This document shows positions 1,283-36,481 of a stretch of 45,561 nt of DNA, in pieces. Source of the stretch: Candidatus Woesearchaeota archaeon (GTDB lineage: Archaea; Nanobdellota; Nanobdellia; SCGC-AAA011-G17; PNOQ01); NCBI GenBank assembly GCA_043812195.1, contig JBDRML010000017.1, positions 1 through 45,561 of the forward strand. Direction: 5' to 3'. A program made the position numbers and the translations under genes. How positions within the stretch are numbered: position 1 is the first letter of the stretch; each line of letters starts with the position of its first letter. Below the pieces are notes generated by a model. The model was not told where the DNA came from and made no database searches. It saw only the letters and a program-made list of their open reading frames with translations.

Positions 1283-1865
1283 TTTTGAAAACCACCTGTA
1301 TAAATTGTTCTACATTAACAAAAACTACATGATTTTTTAAAACTTCTTTCAGAAGAATATCTTTTGTCAAATTTTTCTCAAAAGTTTTAATAGGATAACA
1401 TTTAACACTTATTTCAATACCTAAATTTTTTGAAACTTTTTTTATCTCATCTTTATTATAATCACCAGCAACAAAAACATCTAAATCTGAACCATCTTTC
1501 TCCAATCTTTTAACATAACTCCCAAATATAATCCCAATTCCTTTGATGTGTGGAGTTATTTTTTCTATAATCTCTTTAATTAAAAGTCTCTTTTCTAAAA
1601 ATGCAATCGTCTTATATTGTTCTACAAAAACAAGATATCTCTTAGTAAACTCGCTGGGATTTAGTTTAAATGTCTTAATCTTACCCCTAATCTTTGATTC
1701 TATAATCCCTTTATCTTCTAAATCTTCAAGAATAAGCTGTGAAGTTCTTGGACTTATTTTTAACAATTTTTCAACTTCTCTAACGTAATATTCTCTACTA
1801 AAATCATTCGTGAACAGAGCTAATACTTGTAATGTATTCTCAGTTATTCTAATCTTTTCATACAT
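1275..1865 (-). CDS. wHTH + minimal nucleotidyltransferase (MNT); likely start ATG 1865
   Basis: N-terminal wHTH (YYVREVEKLLKISPRT), IIFGSY...SDLDVFV nucleotidyltransferase motif; TATA box about 25 nt upstream of 1865. Confidence 0.85.
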   Translation of the reverse strand: MYEKIRITENTLQVLALFTNDFSREYYVREVEKLLKISPRTSQLILEDLEDKGIIESKIRGKIKTFKLNPSEFTKRYLVFVEQYKTIAFLEKRLLIKEIIEKITPHIKGIGIIFGSYVKRLEKDGSDLDVFVAGDYNKDEIKKVSKNLGIEISVKCYPIKTFEKNLTKDILLKEVLKNHVVFVNVEQFIQVVFKNG

Positions 1866-2009
1866 ATGTATTATTAATAATACAGCCAATATATAAAGCT
1901 TTTGGACACTAGAAATCTTTGATTTTTTAGTTCATAAAGAACAAGAGTCAAGGATGAAAAAGCATTACAAACAAAGATTAATAAATACATGCAATTTAAC
2001 TAAACTAAA

Positions 2010-3161
2010 ATGAACCCTCCAAAACCTTTTGAAACAGCAATTATTGCATCCCCTGAAGATTTCTCGCCAATCAGAGAAGACTTTAAAGTTATTGGAGCAT
2101 TCAATCCAGGAGTCACAACAGTAGAAACCGATCAGGGTTTAGAAACAATTTTATTTGTAAGAGTTGCTGAAACTCCTCGGAAAAGGATGCCTGGCAAAAT
2201 TTTACTGCCTTATTTCCATATACTAAATGAAGAACAATTACCCTCCAAATTGGATTATGATATTGTCGATAGAAAAGCATATATAAAAATTCGTAAAAAA
2301 GAAGTCACTCCAAAAAAAGGACCGATTAGGTTAAGACATATTTCATTACCTAGAATGGTTGTATTGAATGCGGATAGAAAATTAACTGAAAGGTATCAAG
2401 AACCTGCCATATCTCCTTCATGGGAATTTGATAGGTTCGGACTTGAAGATGTGAGGATAACTCATCTAAAAGATGGGAGATTTGTAATAACTTATGCTAC
2501 ACCTCATAGAAATTATGGAGTTTATAGTTCTATTCTGACTACTGATGATATAAAAGAAACCTCAAAGTTGGAAAGAGTAATATTAGAAAATACTCCTCAT
2601 CAAGAAATTAGGGGAAAAGATGTTGCTTTATTCCCAACAAAAATTCCAAGCCCAGCAAAATCAGAATCTGTGGACAAAGGGCAACTAATTTATGCGTCAT
2701 TTATACGCCCTAATGCATTCTTTGATATAAGTGTTCCTGGTATCTGGATCTCTTATTCTCCTGATCTTGTACATTGGGGACAAGATCATAGATTGATAAG
2801 TAGTGAGAATGGCGAAATAACAGGAACAGGAAGTCCTCCTGTAAAAAGACCGAAGGGATGGATAGCAGCATACCATGAAACAACAAGAAACGAAAAAGGA
2901 AGAACAAAATATGTTACCAGATTGATGACTCTTGATTTAGAAGAACCATGGAAAGTATTGCATAAAAGTCCAATTTTGCTAGACCGAGAAGATTTCAGAG
3001 AGCTTTTGCCAAAAAACGGGTATGTTCCAGACACAGTTTTTACTACAGGAATGGTAATTGATGGAGACAGAACAGACTTGTACCAAGGAATAGATGACCA
3101 ATGGACAACACGTGCCTCATTTTATACAAAAGATATTGATAAATTCGCACGAACAAAATAA
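2010..3161 (+). CDS. GH130-family glycoside phosphorylase/hydrolase (5-bladed beta-propeller)
   Basis: GAFNPG, GLEDVRIT, KDVALFP, SPDLVHW, YH, GYVPDTVF motifs. Confidence 0.8.
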   Translation: MNPPKPFETAIIASPEDFSPIREDFKVIGAFNPGVTTVETDQGLETILFVRVAETPRKRMPGKILLPYFHILNEEQLPSKLDYDIVDRKAYIKIRKKEVTPKKGPIRLRHISLPRMVVLNADRKLTERYQEPAISPSWEFDRFGLEDVRITHLKDGRFVITYATPHRNYGVYSSILTTDDIKETSKLERVILENTPHQEIRGKDVALFPTKIPSPAKSESVDKGQLIYASFIRPNAFFDISVPGIWISYSPDLVHWGQDHRLISSENGEITGTGSPPVKRPKGWIAAYHETTRNEKGRTKYVTRLMTLDLEEPWKVLHKSPILLDREDFRELLPKNGYVPDTVFTTGMVIDGDRTDLYQGIDDQWTTRASFYTKDIDKFARTK

Positions 3162-3576: not shown

Positions 3577-3740
3577 TTATTTATCCTCCTACCCTTGGTC
3601 ATTATTCATTTTTAGAAGCAGCCCAACAAATTCGCCAAATAACCGGCAAACAGTCAAAAAGTTCCAATATATAGAGAAATAAGCTCTTTTTAAATGCTTC
3701 TATTTGCAGTATTTTCTCCCCTATCAGCACATATTAAAAA

Positions 3741-4052
3741 TTAACATAACCCCTTCAATTTCACAACTAATTCATCAAACACATCTTTTTTCTTACTATT
3801 AGATAAAGAAAATAAGGTTTTCTCAACCATTAGTCTAGACACAGTAAATATATAGTTTAGTTTTATGATACTATCTTTTATTGCTCCTTCTTTTTTTGTT
3901 AGAGGTACACCAACCATTTCAGTATTACTAGTTATTCCAGCTACAACAACATTATCCAAATCTTCAAATAAAACCAAGGCTGGTCTTTTTTTGATCTCAA
4001 ATGTGTCTATAAATTGAACTTTAGTTAAAACAACATCGCCAGCTTTAAGCAT
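3741..4052 (-). CDS. PemK/MazF-family toxin; likely start ATG 4052
   Basis: GDVVL...KKRPALVL...VVVAGITS...SIIKLNYIFTV pattern; overlaps the upstream antitoxin. Confidence 0.85.
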   Translation of the reverse strand: MLKAGDVVLTKVQFIDTFEIKKRPALVLFEDLDNVVVAGITSNTEMVGVPLTKKEGAIKDSIIKLNYIFTVSRLMVEKTLFSLSNSKKKDVFDELVVKLKGLC

Positions 4053-33488: not shown

Positions 33489-34769
33489 CTATTTCAAACT
33501 AACATATCCGATTAATCTCCAACGTCCACCAACCATTCTGGAGATTGTAATTCTATCTTCTTTTCTCAAACTAACTGGTTTTTTTAAATTAACTTCAATA
33601 AAATCCTTTCCGACACCAATAACACTTCCAACCGTAACCGAAGAATTAACATTCATCATTAATATTTCACCTAACTTAATAGGATCAACCTTTAACTCAT
33701 CCTTAGAACCAACAACTCTATCTAATAAATGCACTTCTAATTTTAATTTTTCATAAGTTTCCAACATATGGCCTTCTAATCCAACTACATTTCCAACCAA
33801 ACTATCAGATTTAACAATAGAAGGATCTAATTTTGTTAAAATACTTGAAGATCCACCAGGAGCAATTTCTTCAACTTCTTCTCCACCCCACACAAAACCA
33901 ACAATTTGAGTTTTAATAGGAATCCAAACAATCTTATTATGTTTCTCTTTTTTCAAGCCAGGTCTTATCTCAATCAATTCACCCCTCTTAAAAATACCTT
34001 GTGCCATAGCTCCTCCCAAAACACCACCAGAAATTTTCTTTATTGGAGTTCCAGGTTTATTCACATCAAAGGATCTAGCAACATAAAAAATCGGATATTC
34101 ATTTTTCTTTCTTTCAGGAGTCTTAAATCTTTCTTGTATGATTTGTATTAAAGCATCAATATTAACATTATGCTGAGCAGAAATAGGAATTATCGGAGCA
34201 TCTTCAGCAATAGTACCTTTCAAAAAATTCTTAATCTGATTATAATTTTCAAACAATTCATCTTTACTAATCAAATCTATTTTATTCTGAACAACAATTA
34301 TATCTTTAATTCCACTTATTTCCAAAGCCATCAAATGCTCTTTAGTTTGTGGTTGAGGACAAGGTTCATTAGCAGAAATTAATAATAAAGCAGCATCCAT
34401 AATTGCAGCTCCAGATAACATAGTAGCCATTAAAGTCTCATGACCTGGTGCATCAATAAAAGAAACTTTTCTTAAAGGAACATTATCAGTTTTACATTTA
34501 GCACATTTAAAACTAGAACCATAACATTCAGGTTCCGAACATTTAACACATTTATAAAAAGTTGTATCAGCATAACCTAATTTTATAGTAATTCCTCTTT
34601 TTAGTTCTTCAGAATGGACATCAGCCCAGCGCCCAGAAAGAGCTTGAGTTAGAGTAGTCTTACCATGGTCTACGTCTTTGGTGTGGAAAAGTTTCCCTTT
34701 CTAATGTCCAACAAGACCAATGCTAATTTCAGGCACTAGTTCTTTTTCCTTATTTTTAATTTTTTTCAA
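33489..34769 (-). CDS. eif2g: Translation initiation factor aIF2 gamma subunit, two exons (34769?-34706 and 34675-33489; about 416 aa)
   Basis: VPEISIGLVG-H|VDHGKTTLTQALSGRWADVHSEELKRGITIKLGYAD, Zn knuckle, DAPGHETLMATMLSGAA, QNKID, RWRLIG. The start (TTG 34769, after GAGGGGG) is uncertain. Confidence 0.92.
34676..34705 (-). other. 30-nt BHB mRNA intron in aIF2gamma
   Basis: Central helix UUGG/CCAA, bulges AC|A and AG|A, intron hairpin GAAAGG-GAAA-CUUUUC, exon helix UGGUCUUG/CG(U)AGACCA; in-frame TAG inside; splicing gives GGA CAC GTA (G-H-V). Confidence 0.9.
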
Positions 34770-35984
34770 TCTGTTTTCTAACCCCCTCAATCTTTCCAAT
34801 TTTTTAGGATGAGATATATAAGGAATAATCTTCTCCCTAAAACTTATAAAACTATCCCTTTTGATTCTTATGTCATATTTTAATGTTGAAGATCGTTTTG
34901 TTTTACAATATTTGCGAGATATATAAGATTCAATTTTATCCAATTTTAATAGATATTTATACAATAAAGCAGTTTTTAAGAGTTTTATAATTTTTTTATT
35001 ATCTTTATATTTTTGGGTTCCAAAAGCAATAGAAATATCGAAACTATCTAAAGAAATACTTCCTTCTGCTTCGATTAATCCAGCGAAAAAAGCATGTCTA
35101 ACAGATTTGGGAGAATAATATAAAATAGAAATTAAATTTTTATTAAAATGATCAAATACATATTCTTTAAGAATTCTGTTGCAAACTTCAACACGATAAA
35201 CATAATTACCATATTGATGTTTATTAATAGAAATTACTTCAGCATATTTAGTTATTTCTTTATTTGGTCTAAAATCTGGTTTTAAAATAAGTTGTACTTT
35301 TGGATCAACTTGGTTTAATCTTAATATCAAATCTTTAAATTTTTGTATAAATTCTATATTTTTATTGCTTACGCCAACCTTTCTAGCCCCCCCACATTTA
35401 TCACCAACCCATTTACCAAATTCTTTAGCAAATTTTTCATTAAAAACCACCACATTTGGAAGCGGTCTATCTTGATAATTATCTTTTCTTTGGTTGGTTA
35501 TTTGTTCTGATGTTATATAAAAATATTTATTTTTGTTTAAATTAGTTGGTGGTTTGATAAATATATCATTTTCAAATATATTAAAGAAAATCCTATCTGC
35601 TAAAGATCTTCTAAAAGTAGATACTTTTTCTTTTTCTAAATCTACTATTGCTGGAAGTATCAAAGAATGTTCCCTACCACTCGTACCAACTTTTATCTTG
35701 TTTAAATTTTTTTCGAATTGTTTTAAGTTTATTTTAGTTAATTTAGAAATACTAATAATTTCTTTAGATGACATATATCTCTTGTATTTTTTATTATCAC
35801 ATATTTCAAAACCCCTTCTTAATCCAAATAAGTGCCTAACATTTATTCCAATATGTTTAGCAACAATTCTCCAATCTCCAAATTTCTCCCTAAGTAAAGA
35901 AAATACAAAATTTCTGAATTTACCATCTAGGTAAAACATAGCAGTCGTATTTAACAAATTTCTAAGTGATATTTTTACTAACAT
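34701..35984 (-). CDS. Free-standing LAGLIDADG homing-endonuclease-like protein, in frame with aIF2gamma exon 1 and ending at the intron TAG
   Basis: Degenerate motif 1 FAKEFGKWVGD, motif 2 FFAGLIEAEGSI, C-terminal IIPYISHPKK; N-terminal HTH-like segment; last residues are aIF2gamma's KELVPEISIGLVGH. Confidence 0.8.
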   Translation of the reverse strand: MLVKISLRNLLNTTAMFYLDGKFRNFVFSLLREKFGDWRIVAKHIGINVRHLFGLRRGFEICDNKKYKRYMSSKEIISISKLTKINLKQFEKNLNKIKVGTSGREHSLILPAIVDLEKEKVSTFRRSLADRIFFNIFENDIFIKPPTNLNKNKYFYITSEQITNQRKDNYQDRPLPNVVVFNEKFAKEFGKWVGDKCGGARKVGVSNKNIEFIQKFKDLILRLNQVDPKVQLILKPDFRPNKEITKYAEVISINKHQYGNYVYRVEVCNRILKEYVFDHFNKNLISILYYSPKSVRHAFFAGLIEAEGSISLDSFDISIAFGTQKYKDNKKIIKLLKTALLYKYLLKLDKIESYISRKYCKTKRSSTLKYDIRIKRDSFISFREKIIPYISHPKKLERLRGLENRLKKIKNKEKELVPEISIGLVGH

Positions 35985-36004
35985 AACTTAAAAATAAGAA
36001 ATGA

Positions 36005-36049
36005 TTCATAAACAACTTTCGGTGGTGTTTGTCGACCTTGTCTACCTTT
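36005..36049 (-). promoter_or_regulatory. Second copy of the 45-nt nuclease-gene upstream element
   Basis: AAAGGTAGACAAGGTCGACAAACACCACCGAAAGTTGTTTATGAA, 20 nt before ATG 35984. Confidence 0.85.
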
Positions 36050-36067: not shown

Positions 36068-36481
36068 TTACTCTTGCTTTCTTTCTTCTGAACTTTCTTC
36101 TTTTCCACCGAAAATTTCTCCTATTCTTTTAGAACCTTCTTTTACAATCTTTAAATTTATTTGAGAAACATCTTCATCAATTAAATTTCCCCTGATAGTT
36201 TTTCTTTGTTTAATGCCTTTATCTTTAGTCTTGCCACCAACACCTTTAATAAATAAAGGTCTTTTTCTTGCAACACCTTCTATATCTTTTCTTAAAGGAA
36301 ATCCATCATTATCACTTCCACCAGTTATTTCTAACTCATATCCAGATAAACCAAATGAATTACCACTTACTTTCTCTCCCAATTTCTTACTTCTAAAAAC
36401 ATCAGATTCAGCATCAGTTGTTTGCTTTTTATAACTTTTCCCAGTTTTTGGATCATTTATATTTAATTTAAATTCTGCCAT
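36068..36481 (-). CDS. rps6e: 30S ribosomal protein S6e
   Basis: FKLNINDPKTGKSY, GYELEITGGSDNDGFP, RKTIRGN, QINLKIV. Confidence 0.97.
   Translation of the reverse strand: MAEFKLNINDPKTGKSYKKQTTDAESDVFRSKKLGEKVSGNSFGLSGYELEITGGSDNDGFPLRKDIEGVARKRPLFIKGVGGKTKDKGIKQRKTIRGNLIDEDVSQINLKIVKEGSKRIGEIFGGKEESSEERKQE

Follow-up and report, generated by a model that had tools for sequence, protein, structure and literature searches.

The stretch analysed here, the window, comprises positions 1 to 45,561 of contig JBDRML010000017.1 from an assembly of a Candidatus Woesearchaeota archaeon (GCA_043812195.1; genome G000). Its gene for the translation factor aIF2-gamma is interrupted within the P-loop codons by a 30-nt insert (34705..34676; minus-strand features are quoted from high to low coordinate). 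We consider it highly probable that this insert constitutes a bulge-helix-bulge (BHB) intron, spliced by EndA and RtcB from the pre-mRNA of the sole aIF2-gamma gene found in this genome. Directly upstream, and fused to exon 1, is an open reading frame (ORF) for a LAGLIDADG homing endonuclease, which an earlier note on this DNA had missed and which alters the biological picture.

On the minus strand the locus reads GTT GGA C/ATTAGAAAGGGAAACTTTTCCACACCAAAG/AC GTA GAC CAT GGT AAG, with slashes at the borders of the insert. Translated unspliced, it gives ...ELVPEISIGLVGH up to a stop codon and KGKLFHTKDVDHGKTT... beyond it, so that GLVGH is split from VDHGKT exactly between the H and the V of GHVDHGKT. 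The stop is an in-frame TAG (34703-34701), the second codon of the insert, which also ends the reading frame of the endonuclease and exon 1. The UUGG near the end of exon 1 is complementary to a CCAA in the insert, forming a 4-bp central helix flanked by two 3-nt bulges, AC/A (34707-34705) and AG/A (34677-34675). Beyond them, the two exons pair in a helix of seven pairs (one of them G.U) plus a U-A extension, with U34672 bulged, and the insert contains a hairpin of 6 bp capped by a GAAA loop. Excision of the insert at the predicted sites would join GGA C to AC GTA and yield GHVDHGKT, the same motif as in the relatives. The earlier note had described the same 30 nt at the same position, a perfect central helix with two 3-nt bulges, an 8-bp exon-exon helix with one bulged U, and the tetraloop hairpin; all of these are present on re-reading the minus strand, and the GHVDHGKT that it expected from splicing agrees with the relatives' codons at the predicted junction.

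Exon 2 has Pfam matches to GTP_EFTU (1.1e-28) and eIF2_C (7.9e-28), in agreement with the earlier assignment of the gene to aIF2-gamma, and downstream of the insert the frame is open for 394 aa, with 72% identity to the nearest relative. No second aIF2-gamma copy was found in the assembly (938 kb, 45 contigs, completeness 90%); two other matches are weaker hits to the GTPase domain (E 1e-12 and 1e-6) and not copies of aIF2-gamma. The earlier note had proposed looking for another copy, with an intact one elsewhere and decay of this one as the case against an intron; neither was encountered in this assembly. A decaying pseudogene, disabled by an insertion that forms a hairpin by chance, would be in keeping with an in-frame TAG in an essential motif, with a fold that reaches just z = -1.97 (see below) and with transcript evidence limited to one contig away from the junction. 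It is nevertheless very improbable, given a sole copy with both Pfam domains and an intact 394-aa frame, interruption of the same site in 20 of 240 genomes with full-length genes downstream where the loci extend, and the structure-preserving covariation and codon choice described below.

An aIF2-gamma gene is present in 60 of the 61 related genomes. Among the 29 relatives' loci that were fetched (L004-L032), 28 have an uninterrupted ..G-x-[VI]-G-H-V-D-H-G-K.. motif, while the remaining one (L027; G039:C30, 987-3662) has a classical LAGLIDADG intein in its P-loop (HVDHGK/CLAIDEP...VLCHN/TTITQ). A 985-aa open frame in another relative (G043:C29:17123-18274), which matches from residue 5, probably contains the same intein. 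The insert in the window differs from such inteins in having a TAG at its second codon, a length of only 30 nt and no Hint blocks.

For a wider census we used the search pattern GGAC-N(18-30)-CCRAAR-AYGTNRRYMAYGGNAA, with the reversed pattern as a control. The pattern matched 20 of the order's 240 genomes, which belong to 16 of its 132 genera and to 10 of its 29 families (that of the window genome included), and the reversed control matched none of the 240; these counts include kin, which are not independent, and the set derived from the pattern is partly defined by the motif. In a sample of the phylum there were matches in 6 of 401 genomes, with 5 of 71 inside the order and 1 of 330 outside it. 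Neither the intron nor the upstream homing-endonuclease gene (HEG) was found in the 24 other genomes of the window genome's family, which points to acquisition. Pattern matches, together with loci found via the neighbouring HEG protein, gave 26 distinct introns. That the insert is an artefact of assembly or sequencing, as a draft genome in 45 contigs might suggest, is the least credible of the explanations considered, since the same sequence is on a separate metagenome contig (L046, though possibly from the same sample) and 25 other distinct homologous inserts occupy the same site in other assemblies.

The 26 introns are 24 (1), 29 (7), 30 (9), 31 (4), 32 (4) and 35 (1) nt long. The length is not divisible by 3 in 16 of them, and in all 10 whose length is divisible by 3 the frame meets a stop no more than three codons past the junction; the insert is thus unreadable as protein in any of the 26. 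Altogether, 24 of the 26 introns have an in-frame stop among the three codons that follow the 5' splice site (AUUAG, AUUAA, AAUAG and similar). These early stops may limit unspliced translation, terminate the HEG frame or reflect a UUA/UAA helix. The downstream aIF2-gamma is full length wherever the contig extends far enough, and predicted removal restores the product across the whole range of 24-35 nt, including the 16 frame-shifting introns. Four introns begin with U, and there the His codon is regained only if the cut falls after GGAC, which fixes the 5' splice site where the BHB rule places it. The stop close to the junction in 24 of 26 introns, followed by a hairpin, is also what might be seen if the insert were kept in the RNA and skipped by the ribosome through translational bypassing of the phage T4 gene 60 type. 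This alternative is even less probable than a pseudogene: bypassing needs matching take-off and landing codons, none of which restores GHVDHG here, and it leaves unexplained the conserved helix between exon 1 and the insert's 3' end, the symmetric bulges and the exon-exon covariation, while the enzymes of the BHB pathway are encoded in the genome.

The alignment of the 26 distinct intron sequences (A2) was examined for covariation, a check that the earlier note had suggested and that came out in favour of the BHB. The BHB pairs are formed in 86.3% of cells, vs. 24-48% when the partners are slid by 1-3 columns, and changes on both sides of a pair occur in 12 cells, vs. 4.8±1.7 in shuffled alignments (0 of 500 shuffles reach 12). 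Adjacent to the 3' bulge, base 1 of the Val/Ile codon faces base 3 of the His codon; these two bases are G-C in 17 introns, A-U in 8 and unpaired in 1 (n = 26). At the same positions of 28 intron-less alleles, used as a control, the combinations are G.U (17), A-U (4), A.C (4) and G-C (3). Given a G at the first position, C is the last base of the His codon in 19 of 19 intron alleles vs. 3 of 20 intron-less alleles (Fisher p = 2.6e-8, which overstates the significance because kin are not independent; the intron alleles in this comparison were 28 rows distinct by their flanks). The exon helix is complete, with all seven pairs, in 13 of 28 alleles that have the intron vs. 0 of 28 that do not, with means of 5.9 and 4.5 pairs. 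RNA structure thus constrains synonymous sites in insert-bearing alleles only. The inner intron sequences differ and yet fold as hairpins (z <= -2 in 23 of 26), and in all 26 the BHB-constrained fold lies 0-3.5 kcal/mol above the minimum free energy (MFE), which it equals in 3.

Several observations weigh against splicing at this motif. Thermodynamics by itself is weak evidence for the BHB: the 76-nt stretch around the insert has an MFE of -18.2 kcal/mol (z = -1.97; 10 of 200 shuffles fold equally well), and its MFE structure lengthens the exon helix without forming the central helix. In a 62-nt stretch the BHB-constrained fold (-14.1 kcal/mol) lies 1.1 kcal/mol above the MFE (-15.2 kcal/mol). 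It is because of the comparison with relatives that the finding rises above chance. In all 26 homologues the central helix is paired (U-A is replaced by C-G in two), both 3-nt bulges are present and there is an inner hairpin, but the pairing of the central helix is largely imposed by the search pattern and regular expression; since the pattern fixes most of this helix, the informative pairs are those that it leaves free. The intron-side helix beside the 5' bulge consists in the window of a single pair (U34704-A34682) followed by a 2x3 internal loop, so that the motif is not a strict hBHBh'; in many relatives this helix has at least 2 pairs. The metatranscriptome (one study, three runs) gave a 192-nt contig on 33634-33824 and an unrelated partial match, leaves the junction uncovered and is neutral on splicing. 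Searches of the window with Rfam and ARAGORN gave no match, as expected for an mRNA intron.

The machinery for BHB splicing is encoded in the window genome. One EndA is present (contig 3, 181 aa; 93.8 bits to PF01974), a search for paralogues in the genome having found none at E <= 1, and there is an RtcB. Among solved chains, those closest to the EndA come from N. equitans (alpha subunit), M. kandleri and M. jannaschii. The single subunit suggests an enzyme of the alpha4 type. Enzymes of this type classically need strict motifs. An alpha4-like EndA and the non-strict motif in the window therefore look like a mismatch, a further point against splicing. The relevant passages of Kaneta et al. 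2018 (PMC5829648) describe, in several DPANN lineages, an alpha4 EndA with an extra loop that is associated with more disrupted tRNA genes.

If the pathway operates here as known from BHB biology, exon 1 (with its last 14 nt), the intron (with its last 6 nt) and exon 2 (with its first 10 nt) would fold into the exon-exon helix, the bulge AC/A, the 4-bp UUGG/CCAA helix and the bulge AG/A. The single EndA would cut after the second base of each bulge, and RtcB would join the exons into GGA CAC GUA GAC, restoring the P-loop GHVDHGKT; the predicted spliced junction is GGACACGTAGAC.

The 427-aa ORF upstream (35984-34701) continues in frame across exon 1 and terminates at the TAG of the intron. The HEG proper accounts for ~405 aa, and the last ~22 residues of the ORF are the N-terminus of aIF2-gamma. 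The Pfam score for LAGLIDADG_3 is 22.0 bits, just below the cut-off of 22.5; the family has the motifs GKW[IVL]GD[RK]CGG and [FY][YF]AG[LFY][FI]EAEG, and D195 (which we take to be the catalytic residue of motif 1, by alignment to I-DmoI) and E305/E307 are invariant in 17 aligned HEG sequences. An AlphaFold model of the ORF (pLDDT 88.8) has its last 12 residues disordered. In Foldseek searches the C-terminal ~230 residues match I-DmoI (E 4.5e-6; TM 0.62-0.68 on the target), with further matches to the intein endonucleases TliVMA and PI-SceI and to I-Tsp061I, while the first ~170 residues form an extra domain. On this modelled fold the ORF is a LAGLIDADG homing endonuclease, predicted to cleave DNA. 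The family is small, with 16 proteins at E <= 1e-5 among 8000 candidates scored (database size, 5.8 billion sequences). In the alignment of 17 HEG sequences, nine end in ..PE[IVL]x[IV]GL[VI]G[HQ] (P0008 with one extra D), i.e., they run into exon 1; the endings in Q belong to introns that start with AA, in keeping with cleavage after GGAC. Boxes resembling TTTATAAA occur 20-30 nt before the ATG of the HEG, here as TTTATGAAT and in 7 further loci of the 12 printed, and we infer from their sequence and position that they are promoters of the HEG cassette. A likeness of the region upstream of the HEG to the 3' end of the intron is better explained as this promoter region, which is common to other HEG loci.

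Loci with the HEG were also fetched by protein, independently of the intron pattern (9 from species-representative genomes and 12 from metagenomes); the named contigs are labelled Candidatus Woesearchaeota, with one labelled Candidatus Aenigmatarchaeota. The HEG is directly upstream of aIF2-gamma in 21 of 22 loci, and the 22nd (L057) has just a match to a 47-residue HEG fragment and no aIF2-gamma match. De-duplication left 17 distinct HEG loci, all directly upstream of aIF2-gamma, 16 of which have a P-loop intron. In 14 of the 17 the intron is at the same site as in the window. Two others (L050, ~3860-3925; L053, ~3590-3650) have a BHB-like intron 8 nt downstream (GTC GAT/34 or 30 nt/CAY GGC), the removal of which also restores VDHGK; the MFE structure of L053 contains GUCG/CGAC flanked by bulges. 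The last (L044 = L054, ~2770-3060) has no P-loop intron, its HEG is matched in two frames, indicating a frameshift, and its aIF2-gamma site is divergent, GVCGHIDHGK (LTLGVCGHIDHGKTT). A search of the 61 relatives with the HEG protein found it only in the intron-bearing genomes G000 and G041, with two weak matches elsewhere in other genomes and none beside an intron-less aIF2-gamma in the 61.

In our estimate the chances are about even that the intron spread by collaborative homing with the HEG, a mechanism drawn by analogy. In this scheme, aIF2-gamma alleles without the intron would be cut by the endonuclease in the highly conserved codons of the P-loop. With the invaded allele as template, repair would then transfer the intron together with the HEG, which lie ~70 bp apart. 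Carriers would be protected because the intron interrupts the recognition site; later the HEG would decay and the intron stay. Two intron positions within ~10 bp of each other beside one HEG family fit protection by interruption of one recognition site, as does the broken HEG at the sole intron-less HEG locus. Among the 20 intron-bearing genomes of the order an intact HEG is present in 6, and a profile search found C-terminal remnants in two more (L073, profile positions 392-461; L062, 410-461); the sole intron-bearing genome outside the order (L080) has a remnant too (312-449). Remnants beside intron alleles are the pattern expected of a homing cycle of invasion, HEG decay and intron retention.

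The one serious rival touches the role of the HEG only and not the intron. It holds that the intron is spliced, but that the HEG is an independent, free-standing element homing to its own insertion site upstream of aIF2-gamma or to another target, while the intron would spread or persist in other ways, for example through vertical descent with loss, recombination or reverse splicing. Most intron alleles are without an HEG, so that the intron persists, and might spread, without one, and the low count of intact HEGs in the order tells against a shared mobility. So does the fate of a candidate explanation for the second intron site, a shift of specificity in a clade of HEGs of its own, which was rejected: the HEGs of L050 and L053 stand apart on the tree, with moderate support, and are thus not monophyletic. 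The HEG further has its own TATA-like box, and its cleavage site is a putative one, placed by analogy. We nonetheless regard an independent HEG as rather unlikely, in view of the P-loop intron at 16 of 17 distinct HEG loci (the exception having a broken HEG), the lack of any HEG beside an intron-less aIF2-gamma in the 61 genomes searched with the protein, and the remnants adjoining intron alleles. In addition, the spacer between the S6e gene and aIF2-gamma is poorly conserved and the P-loop codons are nearly invariant, and two intron positions within ~10 bp accompany the same HEG family.

Returning to collaborative homing, the neighbouring HEG, its remnants, a second intron 8 nt away and an intein 17 nt away suggest that the aIF2-gamma P-loop codons are a homing hot spot. 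The intein in question is that of L071 (G170:C14, ~1500-3050), which has a BHB intron and, 17 nt downstream, an intein at GK/C (VDHGK/CLAADEKILINN...), and thus two different selfish elements <20 nt apart in one aIF2-gamma P-loop. A derivation of the HEG from the P-loop intein of G039 was considered and rejected, there being no sequence similarity (best E 0.74).

More tentatively, and with somewhat less than an even chance, the HEG cassette and the ORF-less BHB mini-intron may constitute one composite mobile element that invades the aIF2-gamma P-loop across DPANN. In alleles of the window type the intron would supply the stop of the endonuclease frame, such that unspliced RNA would give free endonuclease and spliced RNA would give aIF2-gamma or a fusion protein. 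If such a composite element exists, the splicing state would couple selfish and host expression, and the element would offer the first DNA-level spreading mechanism for a BHB intron in a protein gene and be the archaeal counterpart of collaborative homing in phages.

The splicing chemistry is that of the known BHB pathway, while the gene, the lineage and, above all, the arrangement with an external HEG appear to be new. Our literature search, which did not cover supplements and subscription journals, found no report of an aIF2-gamma intron or of an HEG beside a BHB mini-intron. In the passages of Schwarz et al. 2020 (PMC7714728) that concern mRNA, the cbf5 intron of Crenarchaeota, a pre-mRNA intron attributed there to Watanabe et al. 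2002, is the only mRNA BHB intron reported besides their own case in a 5' untranslated region. Where it treats the subject, Yokobori et al. 2009 (PMC2738675) links cbf5 introns to relaxed motifs and a heterotetrameric enzyme. The two introns are alike in being short BHB introns in a coding frame, with patchy gain and loss and (by prediction in our case) removal by the tRNA splicing endonuclease. They differ in that ours is in the aIF2-gamma P-loop of small genomes, with relatives labelled Woesearchaeota or Aenigmatarchaeota, and is accompanied by an apparently single-subunit EndA, whereas the crenarchaeal enzyme is a heterotetramer. An HEG adjoins the intron here; no such partner is described for cbf5 in the relevant passages of PMC2738675.

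The intron in the 5' untranslated region of Haloferax volcanii HVO_1309, as described in part of Schwarz et al. 2020 (PMC7714728), is likewise an mRNA substrate of the splicing endonuclease (predicted in our case), but lies in an untranslated leader, while here the intron is in the coding frame and its removal is needed for the protein. Archaeal rRNA BHB introns (I-DmoI, I-Tsp061I; PDB 2vs8, 2dch) also combine a BHB intron with a LAGLIDADG enzyme, and our HEG model superposes on I-DmoI. There, however, the HEG is inside a long intron, whereas here the intron is ORF-less, 24-35 nt long, and the HEG, which carries an extra N-terminal region of ~170 aa, is upstream of exon 1. P-loop inteins of translation GTPases are selfish LAGLIDADG elements in the same P-loop (the inteins of G039 and G170 are at GK/C..N/T), but they are removed from the protein; in the 30-nt insert there is a stop codon, and Hint blocks are absent. 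A similar arrangement is that of F-CphI, which adjoins the psbA gene, with its intron, in cyanophage S-PM2 (Zeng, Bonocora & Shub 2009, according to passages of PMC6083498); there the intron-less allele is cut and the intron protects. According to that description, a free-standing HEG likewise adjoins, and co-occurs with, a gene that has an ORF-less intron at a conserved site; the phage system uses a self-splicing group I intron and an Endo VII-type enzyme, while here the gene is a cellular one of an archaeon, the intron is of the BHB kind with predicted splicing by proteins, and the enzyme is of the LAGLIDADG type, with cutting and protection proposed by analogy. Nawrocki et al. 2018 (PMC6125680) concerns group I introns, and passages of a 2026 review of non-canonical splicing (PMC13149111) mention archaeal BHB splicing for tRNA only.

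A spliced aIF2-gamma would be a second gene with an in-frame BHB intron, in an essential translation factor and in a different part of the archaeal tree. Its 26 natural variants amount to a covariation experiment, and the HEG neighbour suggests how BHB introns of protein genes move. In ~8% of the order's genomes, aIF2-gamma, which commonly serves as a phylogenetic marker, will be split or truncated by gene callers.

Features of the aIF2-gamma locus in the window (positions in the 45,561-nt stretch)
Feature	Position	Strand	Basis or remark
BHB mini-intron, 30 nt (AUUAG...CCAAAG), very probable	34676..34705	-	sequence and homologous inserts in relatives
aIF2-gamma exon 1 (..KKIKNKEKELVPEISIGLVG and base 1 of the His codon)	34706..34769	-	sequence; alignment to relatives' N-termini and to G041 'MLKK..'
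aIF2-gamma exon 2 (His codon bases 2-3, VDHGKTT... to stop)	33489..34675	-	frame intact; Pfam
Central BHB helix, 5' strand UUGG, in exon 1	34708..34711	-	pairs with CCAA 34681-34678
Central BHB helix, 3' strand CCAA, in intron	34678..34681	-	sequence and 26 homologues
Exon-exon helix, 5' strand	34712..34719	-	partner 34674-34666, U34672 bulged
Exon-exon helix, 3' strand, within the VDH codons	34666..34674	-	partner 34719-34712
Intron hairpin, 6 bp and GAAA loop	34686..34701	-	inner stretch -4.8 kcal/mol, z = -3.1
LAGLIDADG HEG	34770..35984	-	ORF, Pfam, motif residues, AlphaFold/Foldseek
TATA-like box TTTATGAAT, ~20 nt upstream of the HEG ATG	36004..36012	-	putative promoter of the HEG cassette
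Ribosomal protein S6e gene, upstream neighbour	36071..36481	-	Pfam Ribosomal_S6e, 4.3e-36

The order of genes on the minus strand is the ribosomal protein S6e gene, the 427-aa ORF, the insert and the rest of aIF2-gamma, and in many related loci S6e is upstream of aIF2-gamma (and of the HEG where present). The start of aIF2-gamma is probably the TTG at 34769-34767, with a GTG at 34736-34734 as the alternative; a GAGGGGG at 34788-34782 precedes the proposed TTG. Within codons F-I-S at the HEG's 3' end, ~74 nt ahead of the presumed start of aIF2-gamma, the sequence TTTATAAG at 34843-34850 may be an internal promoter for aIF2-gamma; the homologous F-I-K codons of G041 read TTTATAAAG. An A/U-rich inverted repeat of 17 nt (88% complementary; 36001-35985 with 34762-34746) flanks the HEG and pairs in a co-fold. 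The possibility that the HEG resides inside a second, large BHB intron was dropped, as no geometry of 3-nt bulges and a 4-bp helix was seen in the inverted repeat.

Elsewhere in the genome, an ARAGORN intron search predicted 9 intron-bearing tRNAs among 64 calls (C4, C16, C18, C26, C29, C38, C45), several with predicted introns of 11-13 nt. A crude genome-wide screen for BHB geometry with restoration of the frame gave 171 candidates, including the aIF2-gamma intron; a share of them, including at least one that was checked, is at gene boundaries.

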